Origin: Clostridia bacterium | GTDB lineage: Bacteria; CBDUZB01; JAGLHV01 | Reading direction: 5' to 3' | Assembly: GCA_030637025.1 (NCBI GenBank) | Contig: DAOVVV010000008.1 | Span: 5,802 to 69,801 of the forward strand | DNA length: 64,000 nucleotides | Shown here: positions 254 to 54,120 of the stretch, piece by piece | Layout of the letters: each line of letters begins with the position of its first letter | Numbering within the stretch: the stretch's first letter is position 1 | Notes under the pieces: generated by a model | The model's database searches: none | Told to the model about the DNA's origin: nothing | What the model saw: the letters and a program-made list of their open reading frames with translations, nothing else | Position numbers and translations under genes: made by a program

Positions 254-396
254 GAGTTCTGCGAAATAACGCATTCTGTCATTCCGCACTTGATGCGGAA
301 TCTAAAATGTAATGGATTCCTGCTTTCGCAGGAATGACCCGCCTTACAGACTGGCGGGCAAACAAAAAGGGTAAAAAGGTTATTTTGCAGAAGTCT
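254..396 (+). mobile_element. MITE-like composite repeat copy with TIRs (5' AGAGTTCTGC ... 3' GCAGAAGTCT). Contains REP-like palindromes gtcattccgcacttgatgcggaatc and ggattcctgctttcgcaggaatgac
   Basis: Near-identical copies at 16784-16924, 26596-26735 and 53940-54091. Its 3' end lies 33 nt before the glnA ATG. Confidence 0.6.
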
Positions 397-2552: not shown

Positions 2553-2702
2553 TGGCAGTCGCAACCTTTAGGTTGCGTTCTCAGAGGAGATTTTCCGCAG
2601 GCTTTAGCCTGCGACTACCAAAAAGGGAGTTATGACACACTCTGTTCGCAGGAATCCATTTTGTCGACGATATCCTGGATTCCCGCTTTCGCGGGAATAA
2701 CA
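2553..2702. repeat. ~70-bp palindromic element (tggcagtcgc-hairpin-hairpin-gcgactacca) followed by REP-like half sites
   Basis: Copies at 4973-5038, 16375-16525, 35596-35627 and 53376-53403. Contains gcaacctttaggttgc and gcaggctttagcctgc hairpins. Confidence 0.6.
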
Positions 2703-9651: not shown

Positions 9652-11083
9652 AGGTTTTTTAAAAATTAAAAAACAAAATAGTCAATACAGGCCAGTCAAA
9701 GAACGAATTGAAGATTTTTGTGAAGTAACAATTTTACCTGATGTTTCCCATTCTCAGGAACAGGCAGCACGTTGTATGGATTGTAGCACTTCCTTTTGTC
9801 ATTGGGGATGTCCGTTGGGAAATTATATTCCGGAATGGAATGACTATGTTTTTAACGGTCATTGGAAAAAGGCATTTGAATTGCTTACGGCTACTAATAA
9901 TTTACCTGAAATTACCGGGAGACTATGTCCTGCTCTTTGTGAATATGCATGTGTTTTGGGATTTAATGACGATGCGGTAACTATAAGAGAGAATGAATTA
10001 GCTGTAGTTGAATATGCTTTTAACACAGGATTAATAAAACCTTCGCTTCCTTTAATGCGAACAGAAAAAAGGGTTGCTGTTGTTGGCTCAGGCCCGGCAG
10101 GATTATCCTGTGCTGTCCAATTAAATCAAGCCGGCCATAAAGTAGTTGTTTTTGAAAAAAACAATAAAATCGGAGGAATTTTACGTTACGGTATTCCTGA
10201 TTTTAAACTGGAAAAAGAAATAATAGACCGGCGACTGGCAATTTATGAAAAAGAGGGAATTGAATTTATCACCGGGGTAAATGTAGGGAATGACTTATCC
10301 GCAGAAAAACTTTTAGCAGAATATGATGCAATATGCCTTGCCGGCGGAAGTTCTGTTCCCCGTGATTTAAAAATCGAAGGCAGGAAAATGGAAGGTATTC
10401 ATTTTGCTATGGATTATTTAGTGCAAGCCAATAAGAAGGTTTCCGGAGAAAAAATTGTTGACGAAAAATTAATTAATGCTAAGGGGAAAAAGGTAGTAGT
10501 TATCGGAGGTGGTGATACCGGTGCTGATTGTGTCGGAACAGCTCATCGGCAGGGTGCAAGGAAGATAGTACAAATTGAGCTTTTACCTAAACCTCCCGAA
10601 TCGCGTAGTCAGGATTTTCCGTGGCCGGTATATCCGGTAATTTTAAAAACTTCTACTTCACATCAGGAAGGTGGAAAACGCTGCTGGTCGGTTTTAACTA
10701 AAAAATTTATAGGAGAAAAAGGGGAAGTAAAAAAAATTATCTGTGTAAAAGTAGAGTTTATTAAAAAAGATGAACATTCTTCTCCGATAATGAAAGAGAT
10801 TCCAGGCAGTGAATTTGAAATAGAAGCGGACTTGATAATTTTAGCAATAGGTTTTATTGGTCCTCAGCAACAGGGATTATTAAAAAAACTCAGCATTGAA
10901 CCGGATAATCGGGGGAATGTAAAAAGCGATGAAAAACAAATGACCTCAAGAAAAGGAATATTTGCTGCCGGTGATATAAGGAGGGGACAATCACTTATTG
11001 TCTGGGCTATATTAGAGGGTAGACGGACCGCTTATTTTATTGATGAGTATCTTATGGGTAAAAGTTGTTTGCCATTTATTTAG
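9638..11083 (+). CDS. gltD: glutamate synthase small subunit, NADPH-dependent
   Basis: Overlaps the gltB end by 14 nt. Two Cys clusters at the N-terminus and two Rossmann GxGxxG motifs (VAVVGSGPAG, VVVIGGGDTG). Confidence 0.9.
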   Translation: MGDPKGFLKIKKQNSQYRPVKERIEDFCEVTILPDVSHSQEQAARCMDCSTSFCHWGCPLGNYIPEWNDYVFNGHWKKAFELLTATNNLPEITGRLCPALCEYACVLGFNDDAVTIRENELAVVEYAFNTGLIKPSLPLMRTEKRVAVVGSGPAGLSCAVQLNQAGHKVVVFEKNNKIGGILRYGIPDFKLEKEIIDRRLAIYEKEGIEFITGVNVGNDLSAEKLLAEYDAICLAGGSSVPRDLKIEGRKMEGIHFAMDYLVQANKKVSGEKIVDEKLINAKGKKVVVIGGGDTGADCVGTAHRQGARKIVQIELLPKPPESRSQDFPWPVYPVILKTSTSHQEGGKRCWSVLTKKFIGEKGEVKKIICVKVEFIKKDEHSSPIMKEIPGSEFEIEADLIILAIGFIGPQQQGLLKKLSIEPDNRGNVKSDEKQMTSRKGIFAAGDIRRGQSLIVWAILEGRRTAYFIDEYLMGKSCLPFI

Positions 11084-11102
11084 TTGTGCTTAAATTGGAT
11101 AT

Positions 11103-11132
11103 TTGACATAAAGATGGAAAATGAAGTATAAT
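11103..11132 (+). promoter_or_regulatory. sigma-70 promoter TTGACA-N18-TATAAT
   Basis: TTGACA at 11103-11108 and TATAAT at 11127-11132. Follows the gltD stop and points into the GIY-YIG unit. Confidence 0.5.
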
Positions 11133-11206
11133 ACAGCGCTGAAAGATAGAAGACACCTAAATCTCTATGGTTACATAGTGCAATTATGGGAAAAAATGGA
11201 TAATTT

Positions 11207-11230
11207 GTCATTCCTGCGAAAGCAGGAATC
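11207..11230. repeat. 24-bp REP-like perfect palindrome gtcattcctgcgaaagcaggaatc (left flank of GIY-YIG ORF)
   Basis: Same palindrome at 317-340, 11542-11565, 16868-16891 and 54038-54061, with variants elsewhere. Confidence 0.7.
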
Positions 11231-11248
11231 TAAAAAAAAAGAATAAAC

Positions 11249-11536
11249 ATGAGAGATTATTATATTTATATATTAGCCAGTAAAAAGAATGGGACATTGT
11301 ATCTTGGAGTTACGAATAATCTTGTAAAAAGAGTATATGAACACAAACAAAACTTTGTAGAAGGATTTACTAAGAAATATAACATTCATAGTTTGGTATA
11401 TTATGAACAGACCAATGATAGCTACAGTGCTATTCAACGCGAAAAAAGGATGAAAAGATGGAAGAGGGAGTGGAAGATAGAATTAATTGAAAGATTTAAT
11501 CCTGGATGGAAAGATTTACATTATGATTTGATATAA
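11249..11536 (+). CDS. small GIY-YIG nuclease family protein (95 aa)
   Basis: YIYILAS...GTLYLGVTNNLVKRVYEH is a GIY-YIG core (YhbQ/UPF0213-like). Flanked within 18 nt and 5 nt by inverted copies of the REP-like palindrome. Confidence 0.7.
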   Translation: MRDYYIYILASKKNGTLYLGVTNNLVKRVYEHKQNFVEGFTKKYNIHSLVYYEQTNDSYSAIQREKRMKRWKREWKIELIERFNPGWKDLHYDLI

Positions 11537-11541
11537 TTATG

Positions 11542-11685
11542 GATTCCTGCTTTCGCAGGAATGACAGAATGGAAAAAGGAATGACAGAATAAGAACAGGA
11601 ATGACCCTCCTTATTCTCCGCCTCAGGCGGATGAGGCGGAACGGAGAGGCACGTAGAATAAGAATAGAATCAGTGCGGAATGATT
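11542..11685. repeat. cluster of repeat modules (REP-like palindrome, ggaatgac repeats, ccgcctcaggcgg palindrome, cagtgcggaatga)
   Basis: Right flank of the GIY-YIG ORF. Its modules are shared with the other repeat loci. Confidence 0.6.
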
Positions 11686-11725
11686 TGCATTTTTGACATT
11701 ACTAATATTTAGAGAAAGGATTGTA

Positions 11726-12802
11726 ATGAAAGCAATAATTGCTCTGGAAGATGGAACTATATTTGAAGGTAGTTCCTTTGGTGCATCCGGTGAAAGGACA
11801 GGAGAAATAGTTTTTAATACCAGTATGATGGGATACCAGGAAATTTTAACCGATCCTTCCTATAAAGGACAAATAGTTGCTATGACTTATCCTTTAATCG
11901 GAAATTACGGAGTAAATAAAGAGGATTATGAATCAATAAGGCCTTTTATGGAGGGATTTGTAGTTAAAGAATGCAGTCAGGTTACCAGTAATTGGCGGGC
12001 ACAAGACAGTTTAATTAATTTCCTTAAAAAGCACAATGTTATGGGAATAGAAGGGATTGATACCCGCGCACTGACTAAACATATACGTGATAAAGGAGCA
12101 ATGAAAGCAGTCATATCTACCGAATGCCTGGATAAGAGTTTTTTAGTGGAAAAAGCAAAAAAATCCCTCTCTTTAATTGGGAGGGATTTAGTAAAAGAAG
12201 TTGCTGCCCAAAAACCTTATGAATGGGAGAAAAAAGGGAAATATAAAGTAGTAGTTATTGATTGTGGAGTGAAATATAATATATTACGGGAATTGGCATT
12301 ACATGACTGTGCGGTAAAAGTTGTTCCGGCTAAAACAAAAGCTGCTGATATATTAAAATTAAAGCCGGATGGATTATTGATTTCTAATGGTCCGGGTGAT
12401 CCGCAGGGGGTTCCCTATGTAATAGAGACAGCAAGGCACTTACTGGATAAATTACCTATTTTTGGAATTTGCCTGGGACACCAAATCTTAAGTTTAGCTA
12501 TGGGTGGAAAAACTTATAAACTTAAATTCGGCCATCGGGGGGGAAATCATCCGGTGAAGGATTTAAAAACTAACAAAATAATTATAACCGTCCAAAATCA
12601 TGGTTTTTGTGTAGATATAGAATCATTGAACAAGGAAGTGGAAATGACCCATATAAATCTTAATGACCGGACTTTAGCCGGAATACGACATAAAAAACTT
12701 CCTGTATTTTCTGTTCAGTTTCATCCGGAAGCTTCTCCCGGTCCGCAGGATGCGCAGTATTTATTTAAGGAATTTATTGATTTAATTTCTTTTTCGGTCT
12801 AA
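11726..12802 (+). CDS. carA: carbamoyl-phosphate synthase small (glutaminase) subunit
   Basis: [11 protein letters not shown] start, a GICLGHQ catalytic Cys and an HPE motif. The ORF-track start at 11693 is probably too far upstream. Confidence 0.9.
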
Positions 12803-12886
12803 TTCCCCGCGGCTTGTGGTAGTGTCAAAAATTAGATGAAAGAATGTGAAAGGCTTACGATAAGTAATTAGAAAATAGGAGTATTT

Positions 12887-12965
12887 GTCATTTCCGTGTA
12901 AACGGGAATCCTTGAGTAAATATTAGCAAAAGAATAGATTCCTTCTTTCGCAGGAATGACAGAAT
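12887..12965. repeat. two REP-like palindromes (variant gtcatttccgtgtaaacgggaatc and gattccttctttcgcaggaatgac)
   Basis: Lies between carA and carB. Palindrome family as above. Confidence 0.55.
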
Positions 12966-16783: not shown

Positions 16784-16924
16784 AGAGTTCTGCAAAATAC
16801 AATATTCTGTCATTTCGCTCTGCCTGAGGCAGATGATGCGGAATCTATAATGTTTTTAAATATCAATAGATTCCTGTTTTCGCAGGAATGACAAAAAAGA
16901 TAAAAAGCTATTTTGCAGAAGTCT
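16784..16924 (+). mobile_element. MITE-like composite repeat copy (TIRs agagttctgc / gcagaagtct)
   Basis: Same modules as 254-396. Its 3' end lies 31 nt before the 16956 ATG. Confidence 0.6.
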
Positions 16925-16955
16925 ATGTGAAGTTATTAAAAGGAGGAAAGGAAAA

Positions 16956-19511: not shown

Positions 19512-19590
19512 TGTCACTCCTGCGAAAACAGGAGTCTATCCCTGTAGATTCCCTCCTTCGCGGGAATGACGCAGCAAGCTGTGGGAAATT
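19512..19590. repeat. REP-like palindrome variants (gtcactcctgcgaaaacaggagtc; gattccctccttcgcgggaatgacgcagcaagctgtgg)
   Basis: The shared tail gaatgacgcagcaagctg also occurs at 16505-16522. Confidence 0.55.
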
Positions 19591-19610: not shown

Positions 19611-20627
19611 ATGAATGACAAAAATATTAATGATTGGGAAAATTTAAAAGATGAGGAATTACTGGATTTTCGACTTTGTGATTTTCATTTAAATATTAAG
19701 GGAACAGAGCTGGAAATTTATGTACAACAACTTTATCGGGAACTTACCCAAAAAAATATCATTTTTCATCCTGCCTGTTATTTAGCAGATGAATGGCTCT
19801 GTCCTGACCTGGAGCCGGTAATTGGAATTCCTTTCTATCTGGCTCATCCCCGTTTAAAAAAAATAGAACATAAAATAATGCTGGATGTAGAGGGGGAAAC
19901 AAAATCTTCCTGTATGCGCCTTTTAAGGCACGAAGCCGGACATACTATCAACTATGCTTATCGTTTATACCGAAGAAAACGATGGAAAGAATTATTTGGT
20001 TTGTTTTCTAAAGACTATCCGGAAAAATACCGCTTTCGGCCTTATAGCAAAGGTTATGTGCGACATTTAGAAGACTGGTATGCTCAGTATCATCCTGATG
20101 AGGATTTTGCTGAAACCTTTGCTGTATGGCTGACTCCTAAAAGTAAATGGAGAGAGGAATATCTCGGATGGAAAGCCCTGGAAAAACTGGAATATGTTGA
20201 TCATTTAATGAAAGAAATCAGCAATAAACAGCCCTTAATAAAAACAGGTAAAAAATTATGGCAGGTTTCCCGGCTGACATTAAAATTAAAAACTTATTAT
20301 CGACGAAAAAGGAAACTTTACGAAGAAGAATACCCGGATTTTCATGATTCCAATCTTAAAGAAATATTTTGTCCTACCGTAACTGCCGGAAAAGCATCAT
20401 CATTTTTAAAACATCATCAAAAACAAATCTTAGATAATGTTTCTATGTGGACCGGAGAAAAAAAATATATAATCAATCGTATTATAAAAGATTTAATTAA
20501 ACGTTGTAATGAATTAAATTTATATACCGGAAATAACGAATGTAATACAGTTTCTAAAGTAACGGCTTACATAACAACATTAATTATGAATTATCTTTAT
20601 ACCGGAGGATTTAAAAAAAGACGATGA
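19611..20627 (+). CDS. putative zinc metallopeptidase-like protein (HEAGH ... E zincin motif), function unknown
   Basis: HEAGHTINYAY with a downstream DEDFAETFAVW. Forms an operon with the following ATP-grasp gene (4-nt overlap). Confidence 0.5.
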   Translation: MNDKNINDWENLKDEELLDFRLCDFHLNIKGTELEIYVQQLYRELTQKNIIFHPACYLADEWLCPDLEPVIGIPFYLAHPRLKKIEHKIMLDVEGETKSSCMRLLRHEAGHTINYAYRLYRRKRWKELFGLFSKDYPEKYRFRPYSKGYVRHLEDWYAQYHPDEDFAETFAVWLTPKSKWREEYLGWKALEKLEYVDHLMKEISNKQPLIKTGKKLWQVSRLTLKLKTYYRRKRKLYEEEYPDFHDSNLKEIFCPTVTAGKASSFLKHHQKQILDNVSMWTGEKKYIINRIIKDLIKRCNELNLYTGNNECNTVSKVTAYITTLIMNYLYTGGFKKRR

Positions 20628-21760: not shown

Positions 21761-22135
21761 GATAGTCCATAGACAACAAACAACAGAAAGTTATAAGTTA
21801 ATAGTTATGAGTTATAAGTTAAAAGAAAATTGAAAGACAAGAATAAAAAACAGGCACAAAGGCATCAAGGCACAGAGGCACAAAGTAAAAGACAAGACAA
21901 CAGATAGTCCATAGACAACAAACAACAGAAAGTTATAAGTTACTAGTTATGAGTTATAAGTTAAAAAAAAATTGAAAGACAAGAATAAAAGACAGGCACA
22001 AAGGCATCAAGGCACAGAGGCACAAAGTAAAAGACAAGACAACAGATAAAAGATAAAAGAAAGTTATTAGTTAATAGTTATGAGTTATAAGTTAAAGAAA
22101 TAAAAAACAAAGACAAAGACAAAAGAAAAAAGACG
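21761..22135. repeat. tandem array: two full 142-bp units (21761-21902, 21903-22044), a degenerate third, and a degenerate unit upstream
   Basis: Units are more than 95% identical. Each contains an 8-bp-periodic AGGCACAA x4 sub-repeat and a gttataagtta sub-repeat. The + strand is strongly T-depleted. Confidence 0.8.
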
Positions 22136-25454: not shown

Positions 25455-26591
25455 ATGGCCTGGATTCAAAAAACTTTAGATATAAACGAAAAACTTTCAG
25501 TTTTATCACATGATTCACAATACGATCTGGCATGTTCCTGCAGTATAAATGATGATGATCGCCGGCATCGCTCAAAAGAGGACAAGTGGATATATCCGGT
25601 TACTTTTCCTAATGGCGGCCGGTCTTTTTTGTTTAAGACTTTAATTTCTAATGTATGTGTTAATGATTGTAAATATTGTCCTTTGCGTGAAGGACAGAAT
25701 ACCAGAAGATGTACACTGCAGGCATATGAACTGGTAAAAGCCTTTCTTCAGTATTATCAAAAAGGTAAAGTGATGGGGCTTTTTTTAAGTAGTGGCGTAA
25801 TGGGTAATCCCGATAAAACAATGGAGCAAATAAATAAAATTGCTCTTATTTTAAGAAAAAAACATTTTAAAGGATACATTCATCTAAAAGTTATTCCCGG
25901 TGCTTCTAATGCAGCGATAGAGGAAACTGTTTCTTTAGCCAGTGCAGTTTCAATAAATATCGAAACTGCCGGCGAAAAGAATTTTAACCAACTTTCTAAC
26001 AGCAAAAACTATTTACAGGATATTATTAGGCCGCTTAAATTAATCAGCCGGCTTACCGGAAAAGGTTCTCGTTATAGTAGAGTAAAAAAAACGACGCAAT
26101 TTGTGGTTGGTGCATCTGAAGAAACTGACCAGGAAATTATTAAATATTCCTGGAACTTATACCGGCGATTGGGTTTAAACCGTATTTATTTTAGTGCTTA
26201 TCAACGGGGTTTAGGCGAACCTGATTTACCCGGGGAGATTTCCGGTCAAAGCAATAATGATATTTTAACTCGAGAGCATCGTTTATATCAGGCGGATTGG
26301 TTAATCAGAAAATATGGTTTTACGGAAAAAGAAATTCTTTTTCAAGCTGATGGTAATTTATCATTGACTCTGGACCCCAAGGAAACTTGGGCTAAGAATC
26401 ATCCGGAATTTTTTCCGGTTGATATTAATAAAGCAGATAAGTTAAAATTACTACGGGTCCCGGGTTTAGGATTGGTTACCGTTAATTATATACTTAAATA
26501 CAGGGAAAAGGGTGGATATATTCGTTATCTGGAAAACTTAGGAAAATTAGGAAAAAGACTGATCAAGGCAAAACAGTATTTAAAAATTTAG
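25455..26591 (+). CDS. radical SAM protein with C-terminal helix-hairpin-helix (putative DNA modification/repair radical SAM family)
   Basis: CVNDCKYC (CxxxCxxC) and a C-terminal LLRVPGLGLVTVNYIL HhH. No partner gene lies adjacent. Confidence 0.65.
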   Translation: MAWIQKTLDINEKLSVLSHDSQYDLACSCSINDDDRRHRSKEDKWIYPVTFPNGGRSFLFKTLISNVCVNDCKYCPLREGQNTRRCTLQAYELVKAFLQYYQKGKVMGLFLSSGVMGNPDKTMEQINKIALILRKKHFKGYIHLKVIPGASNAAIEETVSLASAVSINIETAGEKNFNQLSNSKNYLQDIIRPLKLISRLTGKGSRYSRVKKTTQFVVGASEETDQEIIKYSWNLYRRLGLNRIYFSAYQRGLGEPDLPGEISGQSNNDILTREHRLYQADWLIRKYGFTEKEILFQADGNLSLTLDPKETWAKNHPEFFPVDINKADKLKLLRVPGLGLVTVNYILKYREKGGYIRYLENLGKLGKRLIKAKQYLKI

Positions 26592-26595
26592 ATAG

Positions 26596-26735
26596 ACTTC
26601 TGCGGAATGACACATTCTGTCATTCCGCTCCGCCTCAGGCGGATGATGCGGAATCTATAATATTCTTAAATATCAATAAATTCCTGCTTCCGCAGGAATG
26701 ACAATAAAAGGAAAAAGGTTGTTTTGCAGAACTCT
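26596..26735 (+). mobile_element. MITE-like composite repeat copy (5' TIR agacttctgc, 3' gcagaactct)
   Basis: The 5' TIR is an exact reverse complement of the canonical 3' end. Its 3' end lies 30 nt before the 26766 ATG. Confidence 0.6.
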
Positions 26736-26765
26736 TAAAAATTCAGAAATAAAGGAGGGGGAATT

Positions 26766-53939: not shown

Positions 53940-54091
53940 AGTTATGCAAAATACAATATTCTGCCTGCCCGCCAGTCTTTAAGGAGGGTCATTCCGCACT
54001 TGATGCGGAATCTATAATGTTTTTAAATATCAATAGATTCCTGCTTTCGCAGGAATGACAAAAAAGATAAAAAGCTATTTTGCAGAAGTTT
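53940..54091 (+). mobile_element. MITE-like composite repeat copy (TIRs agagttatgc / gcagaagttt)
   Basis: Near-identical to 254-396 and 16784-16924. Its 3' end lies 29 nt before the dfx ATG. Confidence 0.6.
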
Positions 54092-54120
54092 AAAAAATCT
54101 TTAATAAAGGAGGGAAGAAG

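Follow-up and report, generated by a model that had tools for sequence, protein, structure and literature searches.

The window analysed here is a 64,000-nucleotide (64-kb) stretch of DNA with a GC content of 34%, taken from the metagenome-assembled genome (MAG) of an uncultured, low-GC bacterium. It contains a single GIY-YIG nuclease gene, and hence a single copy of the gene called ssn below, which lies among short hairpin repeats in the 642-bp spacer between gltD (stop codon at 11083) and carA (start codon at 11726). The neighbours were identified from the Pfam content of the called genes (Fer4_20 plus Pyr_redox_2 for GltD, CPSase_sm_chain plus GATase for CarA), and GltB and CarB were recognized in the same way. 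An earlier note on this DNA had proposed a 95-amino-acid GIY-YIG reading frame in precisely this setting, and both the frame and its location between gltD and carA are borne out. Judging from sequence comparison, we are highly confident that the locus is an Ssn-SRM module, in which a single-domain GIY-YIG endonuclease of the Ssn family is accompanied by its cognate hairpin repeats, the Ssn-related motifs (SRMs). It is not a new kind of element, as the system has already been published by Chenal et al. (2025, Nat Commun 16:2388; PMC11893778).

The published archetype is SsnA (NMV_0044) of Neisseria meningitidis, a 94-residue single-domain GIY-YIG protein placed under cd10448 (GIY-YIG_unchar_3) in the CDD (PMC11893778). 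Our comparison sequence was not meningococcal SsnA itself, but its N. gonorrhoeae orthologue, obtained from two gonococcal chromosomes that are labelled as plasmids in PLSDB (one is NZ_CP119142.1, 2.17 Mb, the source of locus L090). The window protein is 52% identical to this orthologue over 90 residues (pairwise BLASTP, E 6e-38), and tblastn recovers the gonococcal match with E 1e-18 in 7.3 Gb of sequence, well below the E < 1e-10 criterion of PMC11893778. The gonococcal frame has 94 residues and carries Tyr6, Tyr17 and Glu64 as published, and the window protein has Y7, Y18 and E65 at the aligned positions; in SsnA, the substitutions Y6A, Y17A and E64A each abolish cleavage (PMC11893778). At L090 1480-1775 the ssnA orthologue has no in-frame ATG (an ATG at 1494 is off by one base), which reflects either a frameshifted gene or a sequencing error.

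Other features of the protein are those of a minimal GIY-YIG enzyme. The Pfam domain PF01541 spans residues 4-76 (E 4e-13), and the AlphaFold2 model (pLDDT 92.6) is a bare GIY-YIG fold with no extra domain. Residues Y7, Y18, R28, E31, H32, E65 and N84 are invariant in an alignment of 38 sequences; in a broader alignment, invariance is limited to Y7 and Y18 out of this set, while at least 90% of the sequences retain R28, H32, E65 and N84. The nearest solved folds to the model are the UPF0213 protein BH0048 (1zg2, Foldseek E 3.4e-4), Slx1 (4xlg, 7cq2) and the N-terminal domain of UvrC. This likeness extends to the small UPF0213/YhbQ proteins and Slx1 in general, although Ssn (cd10448) is treated as a separate family in PMC11893778. 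A sequence search of the PDB gave no significant chain match, and there is no Ssn structure in that database. NCBIfam holds no family-specific model. No Shine-Dalgarno sequence is evident ahead of ssn (AAAGAATAAACATG).

The repeats that frame the gene correspond closely to what is known of the Ssn substrate. In Neisseria, this substrate is the NTS, CGTCATTCCCGCGMAVGCGGGAATCYRG, an extended dRS3 repeat that SsnA binds only as single-stranded DNA (ssDNA), and on one strand only, and the enzyme cleaves ssDNA alone, a few nucleotides 5' of the motif. Binding depends critically on the C that follows the palindrome, and cleavage on the three nucleotides in front of it; the affinity of Ssn homologues for their motifs as ssDNA is nanomolar, whereas RNA is not bound (all PMC11893778). 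The hairpin flanking the window gene, GTCATTCCTGCGAAAGCAGGAATC, consists of a 5' GTC, an 8-bp stem (ATTCCTGC/GCAGGAAT) closed by a GAAA loop, and a 3' C. As ssDNA it is predicted to fold with -7.8 kcal/mol (z -4.45). Because the stem carries asymmetric tails (5' GTC, 3' C), the element has an orientation, written (+) or (-) below, and the two flanking copies form an inverted pair (30 nt, 93%). The earlier note had described a 24-bp perfect palindrome present twice. Its positions and its spacings to the gene are exact, but the element is not a perfect palindrome, and what lies downstream of the gene is its reverse complement. The determinants mapped in PMC11893778, namely the hairpin, the GTC 5' of the palindrome and the C directly 3', are kept in both flanking SRMs.

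Support for a link between gene and repeats comes from homologous loci. More than 2,500 relatives of the window protein were found, many of them about 70% identical and from very different phyla, and we read the flanks of 52 homologous loci taken from species-representative genomes. At the majority of these loci, a GTCAYYC-hairpin-GRRATC element lies directly ahead of the start codon and an inverted copy lies directly past the stop codon, and the stem sequences vary among loci yet remain complementary. With a strict scanner and a limit of 150 nt, 27 of 50 loci have SRM(+) upstream and 20 of 52 have SRM(-) downstream; both flanks are positive at 15 of 50, and the opposite orientation occurs eight times on each side. 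The shuffle rate predicts about 0.003 hits per flank, and the association of gene and repeat is not due to chance. When perfect hairpins of 7 bp or more were scanned for irrespective of motif, GTC was found immediately 5' at 19 of 37 loci and C immediately 3' at 22 of 37, and one 71%-identical homologue has the canonical NTS, GTCATTCCCGCGAAAGCGGGAATCCAG, on both sides (L012). The published survey found an SRM near 71% of homologue genes and on both sides of 42% (PMC11893778). Thus the suggestion that nuclease and repeats belong together holds, since the association recurs across phyla. The earlier note would have counted paralogues without flanking palindromes against its idea, but palindromes flank all close paralogues and most distant homologues. 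The nearest paralogues lack the exact (+)...(-) framing, and their homology with the window begins only at 11233, past the upstream hairpin.

The neighbourhood of one homologue is a defence island: on Planktothrix agardhii plasmid p1 (NZ_LR882964.1 18447-19513; L091), a 59%-identical Ssn homologue with the SRM variant GTCATTCTGAGTGAAACGAAGAATC has an MmeI-type restriction-modification gene on one side and DISARM drmA on the other.

Some observations weigh against a simple equation of the window repeats with the published motif. The published SRM pattern, HGTCWYN(0-2)YYVSBRHN(0-5)WNVSBRGN(0-2)RNCYNB, matches neither flanking SRM; it does match the canonical NTS, and within the window it recovers only the copy at 12886-12913. 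Moreover, the flanking orientation is (+)gene(-) in the window versus (-)gene(+) at the gonococcal locus. Two features put the flanking copies out of the pattern's reach, a compensated T:A pair that replaces C:G at position 6 of the stem, and a CTAA tail on the 3' side; the specificity of the window enzyme may therefore differ, as the paper found for NTSvar and for Wolbachia. The pattern is a hand-made search aid and not a functional definition, and we read these copies as a variant SRM like the NTSvar of the paper, rather than as a sign of non-membership. Since the stem variant of the window escapes the published pattern, published SRM counts probably underestimate the spread of the family. 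Every new Ssn/SRM pair is also of interest to biotechnology, as a candidate restriction enzyme that is ssDNA-specific and differs in specificity from the others.

By homology with the characterized Neisseria and Wolbachia enzymes, a mechanism can be proposed for the window module. An SRM that becomes single-stranded, whether in an incoming transforming strand or in a replication or repair intermediate, would fold into its 8-bp hairpin. Ssn would then bind the hairpin and the following C, read the preceding GTC, and cut the same strand a few nucleotides 5' of the GTC, leaving duplex DNA, RNA and the complementary strand uncut. The two flanking SRMs are oriented outward, so the predicted cuts lie beyond the gene on either side, at about 11200-11204 in the top strand and about 11568-11572 in the bottom strand, with an offset that we infer from the published 37-nt and 28-nt oligonucleotides. 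The other SRMs of the window (about 11, in about seven further intergenic clusters) would serve as further substrates. The enzyme would thus be active as its homologues are, and its cellular effect is likely to be restriction or modulation of recombination with SRM-bearing ssDNA, by extrapolation from the meningococcus, where SsnA reduces transformation by NTS-bearing DNA (PMC11893778). The proposal that the nuclease acts at the palindromes therefore survives in part: homologues do bind and cut beside the hairpin, but on one strand of ssDNA and not by nicking a duplex, and what has been demonstrated in N. meningitidis is that the enzyme restricts transforming ssDNA, which is a role other than mobilization (PMC11893778).

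Further SRM copies are scattered through the window (Table 1). Matches to GTCATTCCTGCGAAAGCAGGAATC with up to three mismatches number nine, versus none in 100 shuffles, and a structural scan (GTC, a stem of at least 6 bp, and C) gave 13 hits versus a shuffle mean of 2.9. We judge about 12 of the 13 to be real SRMs, all of them intergenic, and the hit at 19637-19674 to be a likely chance match. The clusters all lie between same-strand genes, and the SRMs mostly occur as convergent (+)/(-) doublets with the geometry of the ssn unit. Four are contained in copies of a composite repeat of about 150 nt (250-400, 16800-16930, 26590-26740 and 53950-54100), in which outer 16-bp inverted repeats, AGAGTTCTGCRAAATA and TATTTTGCAGAAGTCT, enclose a convergent SRM-B(+)/SRM-A(-) doublet, SRM-B being the variant GTCATTCCGCACTTGATGCGGAATC. 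Beyond the end of each copy, the Shine-Dalgarno sequence of the next gene follows after about 20-40 nt, and the unit looks like a MITE (a miniature transposable element with inverted repeats) or a REPIN. A system described from cultured reference genomes is therefore present, and expanded, in an uncultured low-GC anaerobe.

Table 1. Positions of the ssn gene, its hairpins and related repeats, given in window coordinates or, where an L number precedes them, in those of the homologous locus named
Feature	Position	Strand	Description
Promoter-like site	11103-11132	+	Sigma-70-like TTGACA-N18-TATAAT, 12/12 hexamer positions; consensus match alone
Upstream SRM(+)	11207-11230	+	GTCATTCCTGCGAAAGCAGGAATC, exact; ends 18 nt before ATG
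ssn	11249-11536	+	Predicted 95-aa single-domain GIY-YIG nuclease, Ssn family
Downstream SRM(-)	11542-11565	-	Exact reverse complement of GTCATTCCTGCGAAAGCAGGAATC; starts 5 nt past stop codon
Half-site array	11557-11605	-	Three 5' half-sites (GTCATTCCT; GGAATGAC), 20-nt period, 5' of complete SRM(-)
Decayed repeat modules	11606-11685		CCGCCTCAGGCGG hairpin 11618-11630; TGCGGAATGAT half-site 11674-11684
Gene-less convergent doublet	278-338		SRM-B(+) 278-302, SRM-A(-) 315-338; inside ~150-nt unit
Divergent SRM(-)	2678-2701	-	GTTATTCCCGCGAAAGCGGGAATC
Doublet between carA and carB	12886-12960		(+) 12886-12913, (-) 12937-12960
SRM(-)	16869-16892	-	In composite unit upstream of next gene
Doublet	19513-19570		(+) 19513-19536, (-) 19547-19570
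Doublet	26619-26702		(+) 26619-26655 with hairpin nested in loop, (-) 26679-26702
Doublet	53988-54059		(+) 53988-54012, (-) 54036-54059, exact copy of ssn-flanking unit
Half-site arrays	L059 1641-1750, 4887-4955, 5415-5482
Half-site array	L088 1326-1454
Half-site array	L002 788-836
Half-site array	L026 3321-3411
Half-site array	L015 2818-2907
Half-site array	L090 1378-1424
Half-site arrays	L091 95-160, 735-800

The earlier note was also correct that a cluster of repeat modules lies 3' of the gene. It consists of the half-site array (Tandem Repeats Finder: period 20, 2.5 copies) and, beyond it up to 11685, decayed hairpin modules that we assigned by comparison with the SRM-B copy at 26619-26655, GTCATTCCGCTCCGCCTCAGGCGGATGATGCGGAATC, in which the CCGCCTCAGGCGG hairpin is nested. 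Comparable tandem arrays of a spacer plus a 5' half-SRM are found at other homologous loci, always 5' of a complete SRM and on the SRM-sense strand. A period of 20 nt is seen in the lineage of the window, in a Desulfatiglandales MAG and in one Patescibacteria MAG (L026); a second Patescibacteria MAG (L015) has 18 nt, a Berkelbacteria MAG (L034) has 17 nt, N. gonorrhoeae has 19-20 nt, and the Planktothrix plasmid has 24 and 31 nt. The spacers are unrelated between lineages, which indicates that the arrays arose independently, and from these sequences we count the window's lineage, Desulfatiglandales, Patescibacteria, Planktothrix and Neisseria as separate origins. The duplicated segment contains the expected Ssn cut site, and the arrays may be a footprint of cleavage and repair at that site. 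They are unmentioned in the 2025 Ssn paper (PMC11893778), and their recurrence offers a testable link between the position of cleavage and the growth of repeats.

Whether Ssn also moves its own gene is a more difficult question. The 2025 authors described NTS-ssnA-NTS as insertion-sequence-like, drew the analogy with REP (repetitive extragenic palindromic) sequences, RAYTs and BIMEs, and proposed domestication, but did not show mobility (PMC11893778); we found no later literature on Ssn mobility, and nothing relevant on GIY-YIG proteins in connection with REP/RAYT or COG2827. One extension of the Ssn-SRM explanation, which does not exclude it, is that the cassette is selfish and mobile in the manner of RAYT/REPIN systems, either now or until recently, with ssDNA breaks made by Ssn at SRMs moving both the gene and the gene-less doublets from one intergenic SRM cluster to another. 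We consider this possible, if on balance unlikely.

The comparison of close relatives nevertheless provides, to our knowledge, the first hints of the insertion-sequence-like behaviour that the 2025 authors only hypothesized, in the form of four contexts, one empty site, and conservation of ssn above that of its neighbours. Ssn proteins that are at least 91% identical are encoded in the gltD-carA spacer (window), in the hydF-hydG spacer (L059, L060 and L087), in the spacer that separates hydA from a TM1266-like gene (L064-66, L088 and L001), and upstream of a DUF4340 gene (L089); in the last three contexts the identity is 91-93%. The spacer between hydA and the TM1266-like gene has ssn in L064 and L088 and lacks it in L059, where only an SRM doublet and a five-copy half-site array are present between orthologous flanks. 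However, in L088 a direct repeat of about 50 nt, GGAATGAC-CCGCnTTACAAACTGGCGGGCAGGCAGAATAAAnAGAAAAAG (1440-1500 and 1870-1930), brackets the cassette, so the 'empty' site can be a deletion, and ordinary homologous recombination between repeats suffices for gain, loss or relocation of the gene. Between genomes, ssn is 92-98% identical in nucleotide sequence versus 81-94% for adjacent housekeeping genes (98.3% for ssn versus 87.7% for hydG between L059 and L087), which points to recent exchange or gene conversion. At larger distances, proteins of about 70% identity are encoded in Omnitrophota, Desulfobacterota, Patescibacteria, Bacteroidota, Proteobacteria and a Thermoplasmata MAG, which also speaks for mobility; against it, no homologue was found among 50,697 phage records.

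The gene-less convergent doublets, which share the geometry of the ssn unit, likewise suit a mobile element. Yet only one ssn copy is present in 64 kb, the block common to near paralogues extends from 11233 to about 11569-11605 and excludes the upstream SRM, and the ends of the cassette are variable. Pre-existing repeats bracket the cassette, and there was no sign of a target-site duplication. The chemistry is a further obstacle: GIY-YIG enzymes are DNA hydrolases for which we know of no strand-transfer, ligation or rejoining activity, and neither strand transfer nor ligation has been reported for Ssn. In our view the evidence for Ssn-dependent mobility is suggestive, and the idea itself tentative. 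The fuller scenario, in which the cassette of this lineage moves between SRM clusters and the doublets and arrays derive from Ssn-dependent breakage and repair as a GIY-YIG-based counterpart of RAYT/REPIN systems, seems to us doubtful. If it is true, the tandem arrays of spacer plus 5' half-SRM are footprints of repeated cleavage at the Ssn cut site. Only these mobility hints and the half-site arrays go beyond the literature.

At the locus itself, insertion of the unit between gltD and carA, as the earlier note has it, is only a possibility. All 11 of the contigs read that encode an identical protein have the same gene context as the window, so there is no polymorphism at the gltD-carA locus. 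A metagenome scan for relatives of GltD found none with carA beside gltD among the closest (63% identity or less), which is uninformative regarding an empty gltD-carA site.

Returning to the Ssn-SRM module as the preferred explanation, its position among known systems can be stated more precisely. It is most like the Neisseria Ssn/NTS pair, with which it shares the size (about 94 residues) and catalytic Tyr/Tyr/Glu of its single-domain enzyme, a gene-flanking hairpin with 5' GTC and 3' C, and many further copies in intergenic clusters, and from which it differs in its uncultured host of low GC content and in the compensated T:A stem pair. The mosaic appearance of its clusters resembles Neisseria dRS3 repeats and NIMEs, as well as enterobacterial BIMEs, where a 20-nt hairpin repeat (ATTCCC-N8-GGGAAT) is joined by variable modules; however, the lineage, the stem variant and the modules of the window (the 16-bp outer inverted repeat, CCGCC hairpins and 20-nt half-site arrays) are different. 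Like REP sequences with their RAYT (TnpA-REP) genes and REPINs, it combines a single-copy nuclease gene located between inverted short hairpin repeats, dispersal of these repeats in intergenic regions, gene-less inverted doublets, and an ssDNA hairpin with an oriented tail (GTAG or CGTC for RAYT, GTC here). Unlike them, it employs a GIY-YIG hydrolase and not an HUH Y1 transposase, with no covalent intermediate or rejoining chemistry known. We rejected membership in the RAYT/REPIN group, as the protein is GIY-YIG with no Y1/HUH match and the likeness is architectural only. The peel-and-paste IS200/IS605 insertion sequences likewise involve recognition of subterminal hairpins in ssDNA and a cut not far from the hairpin, as would be the case for Ssn by homology, but there the two hairpins share a strand and an ssDNA circle is excised by an HUH transposase, whereas the window SRMs are on opposite strands and the enzyme is of another family.

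A different possibility is that the hairpins act chiefly at the level of the transcript, as mRNA stabilizers, attenuators or terminators like some REP sequences, and that the nuclease gene lies among them without acting on them. The intergenic placement of all SRM clusters between same-strand genes is compatible with this, as is the position of the composite units near 278, 16869, 26619 and 53988, which end close to the next ribosome-binding site, and the upstream SRM would be within the 5' untranslated region of ssn if the promoter-like site at 11103 is used. None of this accounts for an oriented gene-motif association across phyla with conserved, non-paired GTC and C tails, nor for homologues that bind the motif with nanomolar affinity as ssDNA and not as RNA (PMC11893778). 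There is also no terminator-like site in 11000-11800, and Rfam gave no match, either for the locus at a permissive threshold or for the whole window at the gathering threshold. We therefore judge a transcript-level explanation to be improbable.

Still weaker is the notion of a homing endonuclease of the I-TevI type, or of a chance neighbour of unrelated repeats, which we rejected as extremely improbable: homing enzymes of this type join the GIY-YIG domain through a linker to a DNA-binding domain and are intron-encoded or free-standing in phage, whereas the window protein is a 95-residue single domain without a DNA-binding domain, no intron or intein context exists at the locus, and the 52% identity to the Neisseria orthologue and the hairpin association recurring in dozens of unrelated genomes outweigh the only match obtained from NCBIfam, which is to TIGR01453 (group I intron endonuclease) and, at 19.1 bits, falls short of the cut-off of 56.05.

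The promoter-like site was proposed in the earlier note as belonging to the nuclease gene. The match to the consensus is complete, but the site is located upstream of, and outside, the hairpin-framed unit. Motifs like TTTGACATTACT also occur ahead of carB (about 13000) and ahead of the TM1266-like gene in L064, and what they represent may be a promoter or operator typical of the lineage, and not one that is ssn's 'own'. An imperfect 15-nt direct repeat, TTGGATATTTGACAT at 11095-11109 and TTGCATTTTTGACAT at 11685-11699, brackets nearly the entire content of the gltD-carA spacer.

Two additional repeats were encountered. In L064 (2730-2860) and L065 (3930-4060), the loop of an SRM(-) hairpin contains an inserted MITE of about 120 bp whose terminal inverted repeats are AGACTGTGTCATAA, and a related terminus is present in the window at about 2625-2650; the 69-residue reading frame called within this MITE is probably spurious. 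Finally, a tandem repeat at 21761-22100 comprises 2.4 copies of a 142-bp unit with 90-97% matches, and includes internal micro-repeats of 7-8 nt (AAGTTAT, AGGCACAA).

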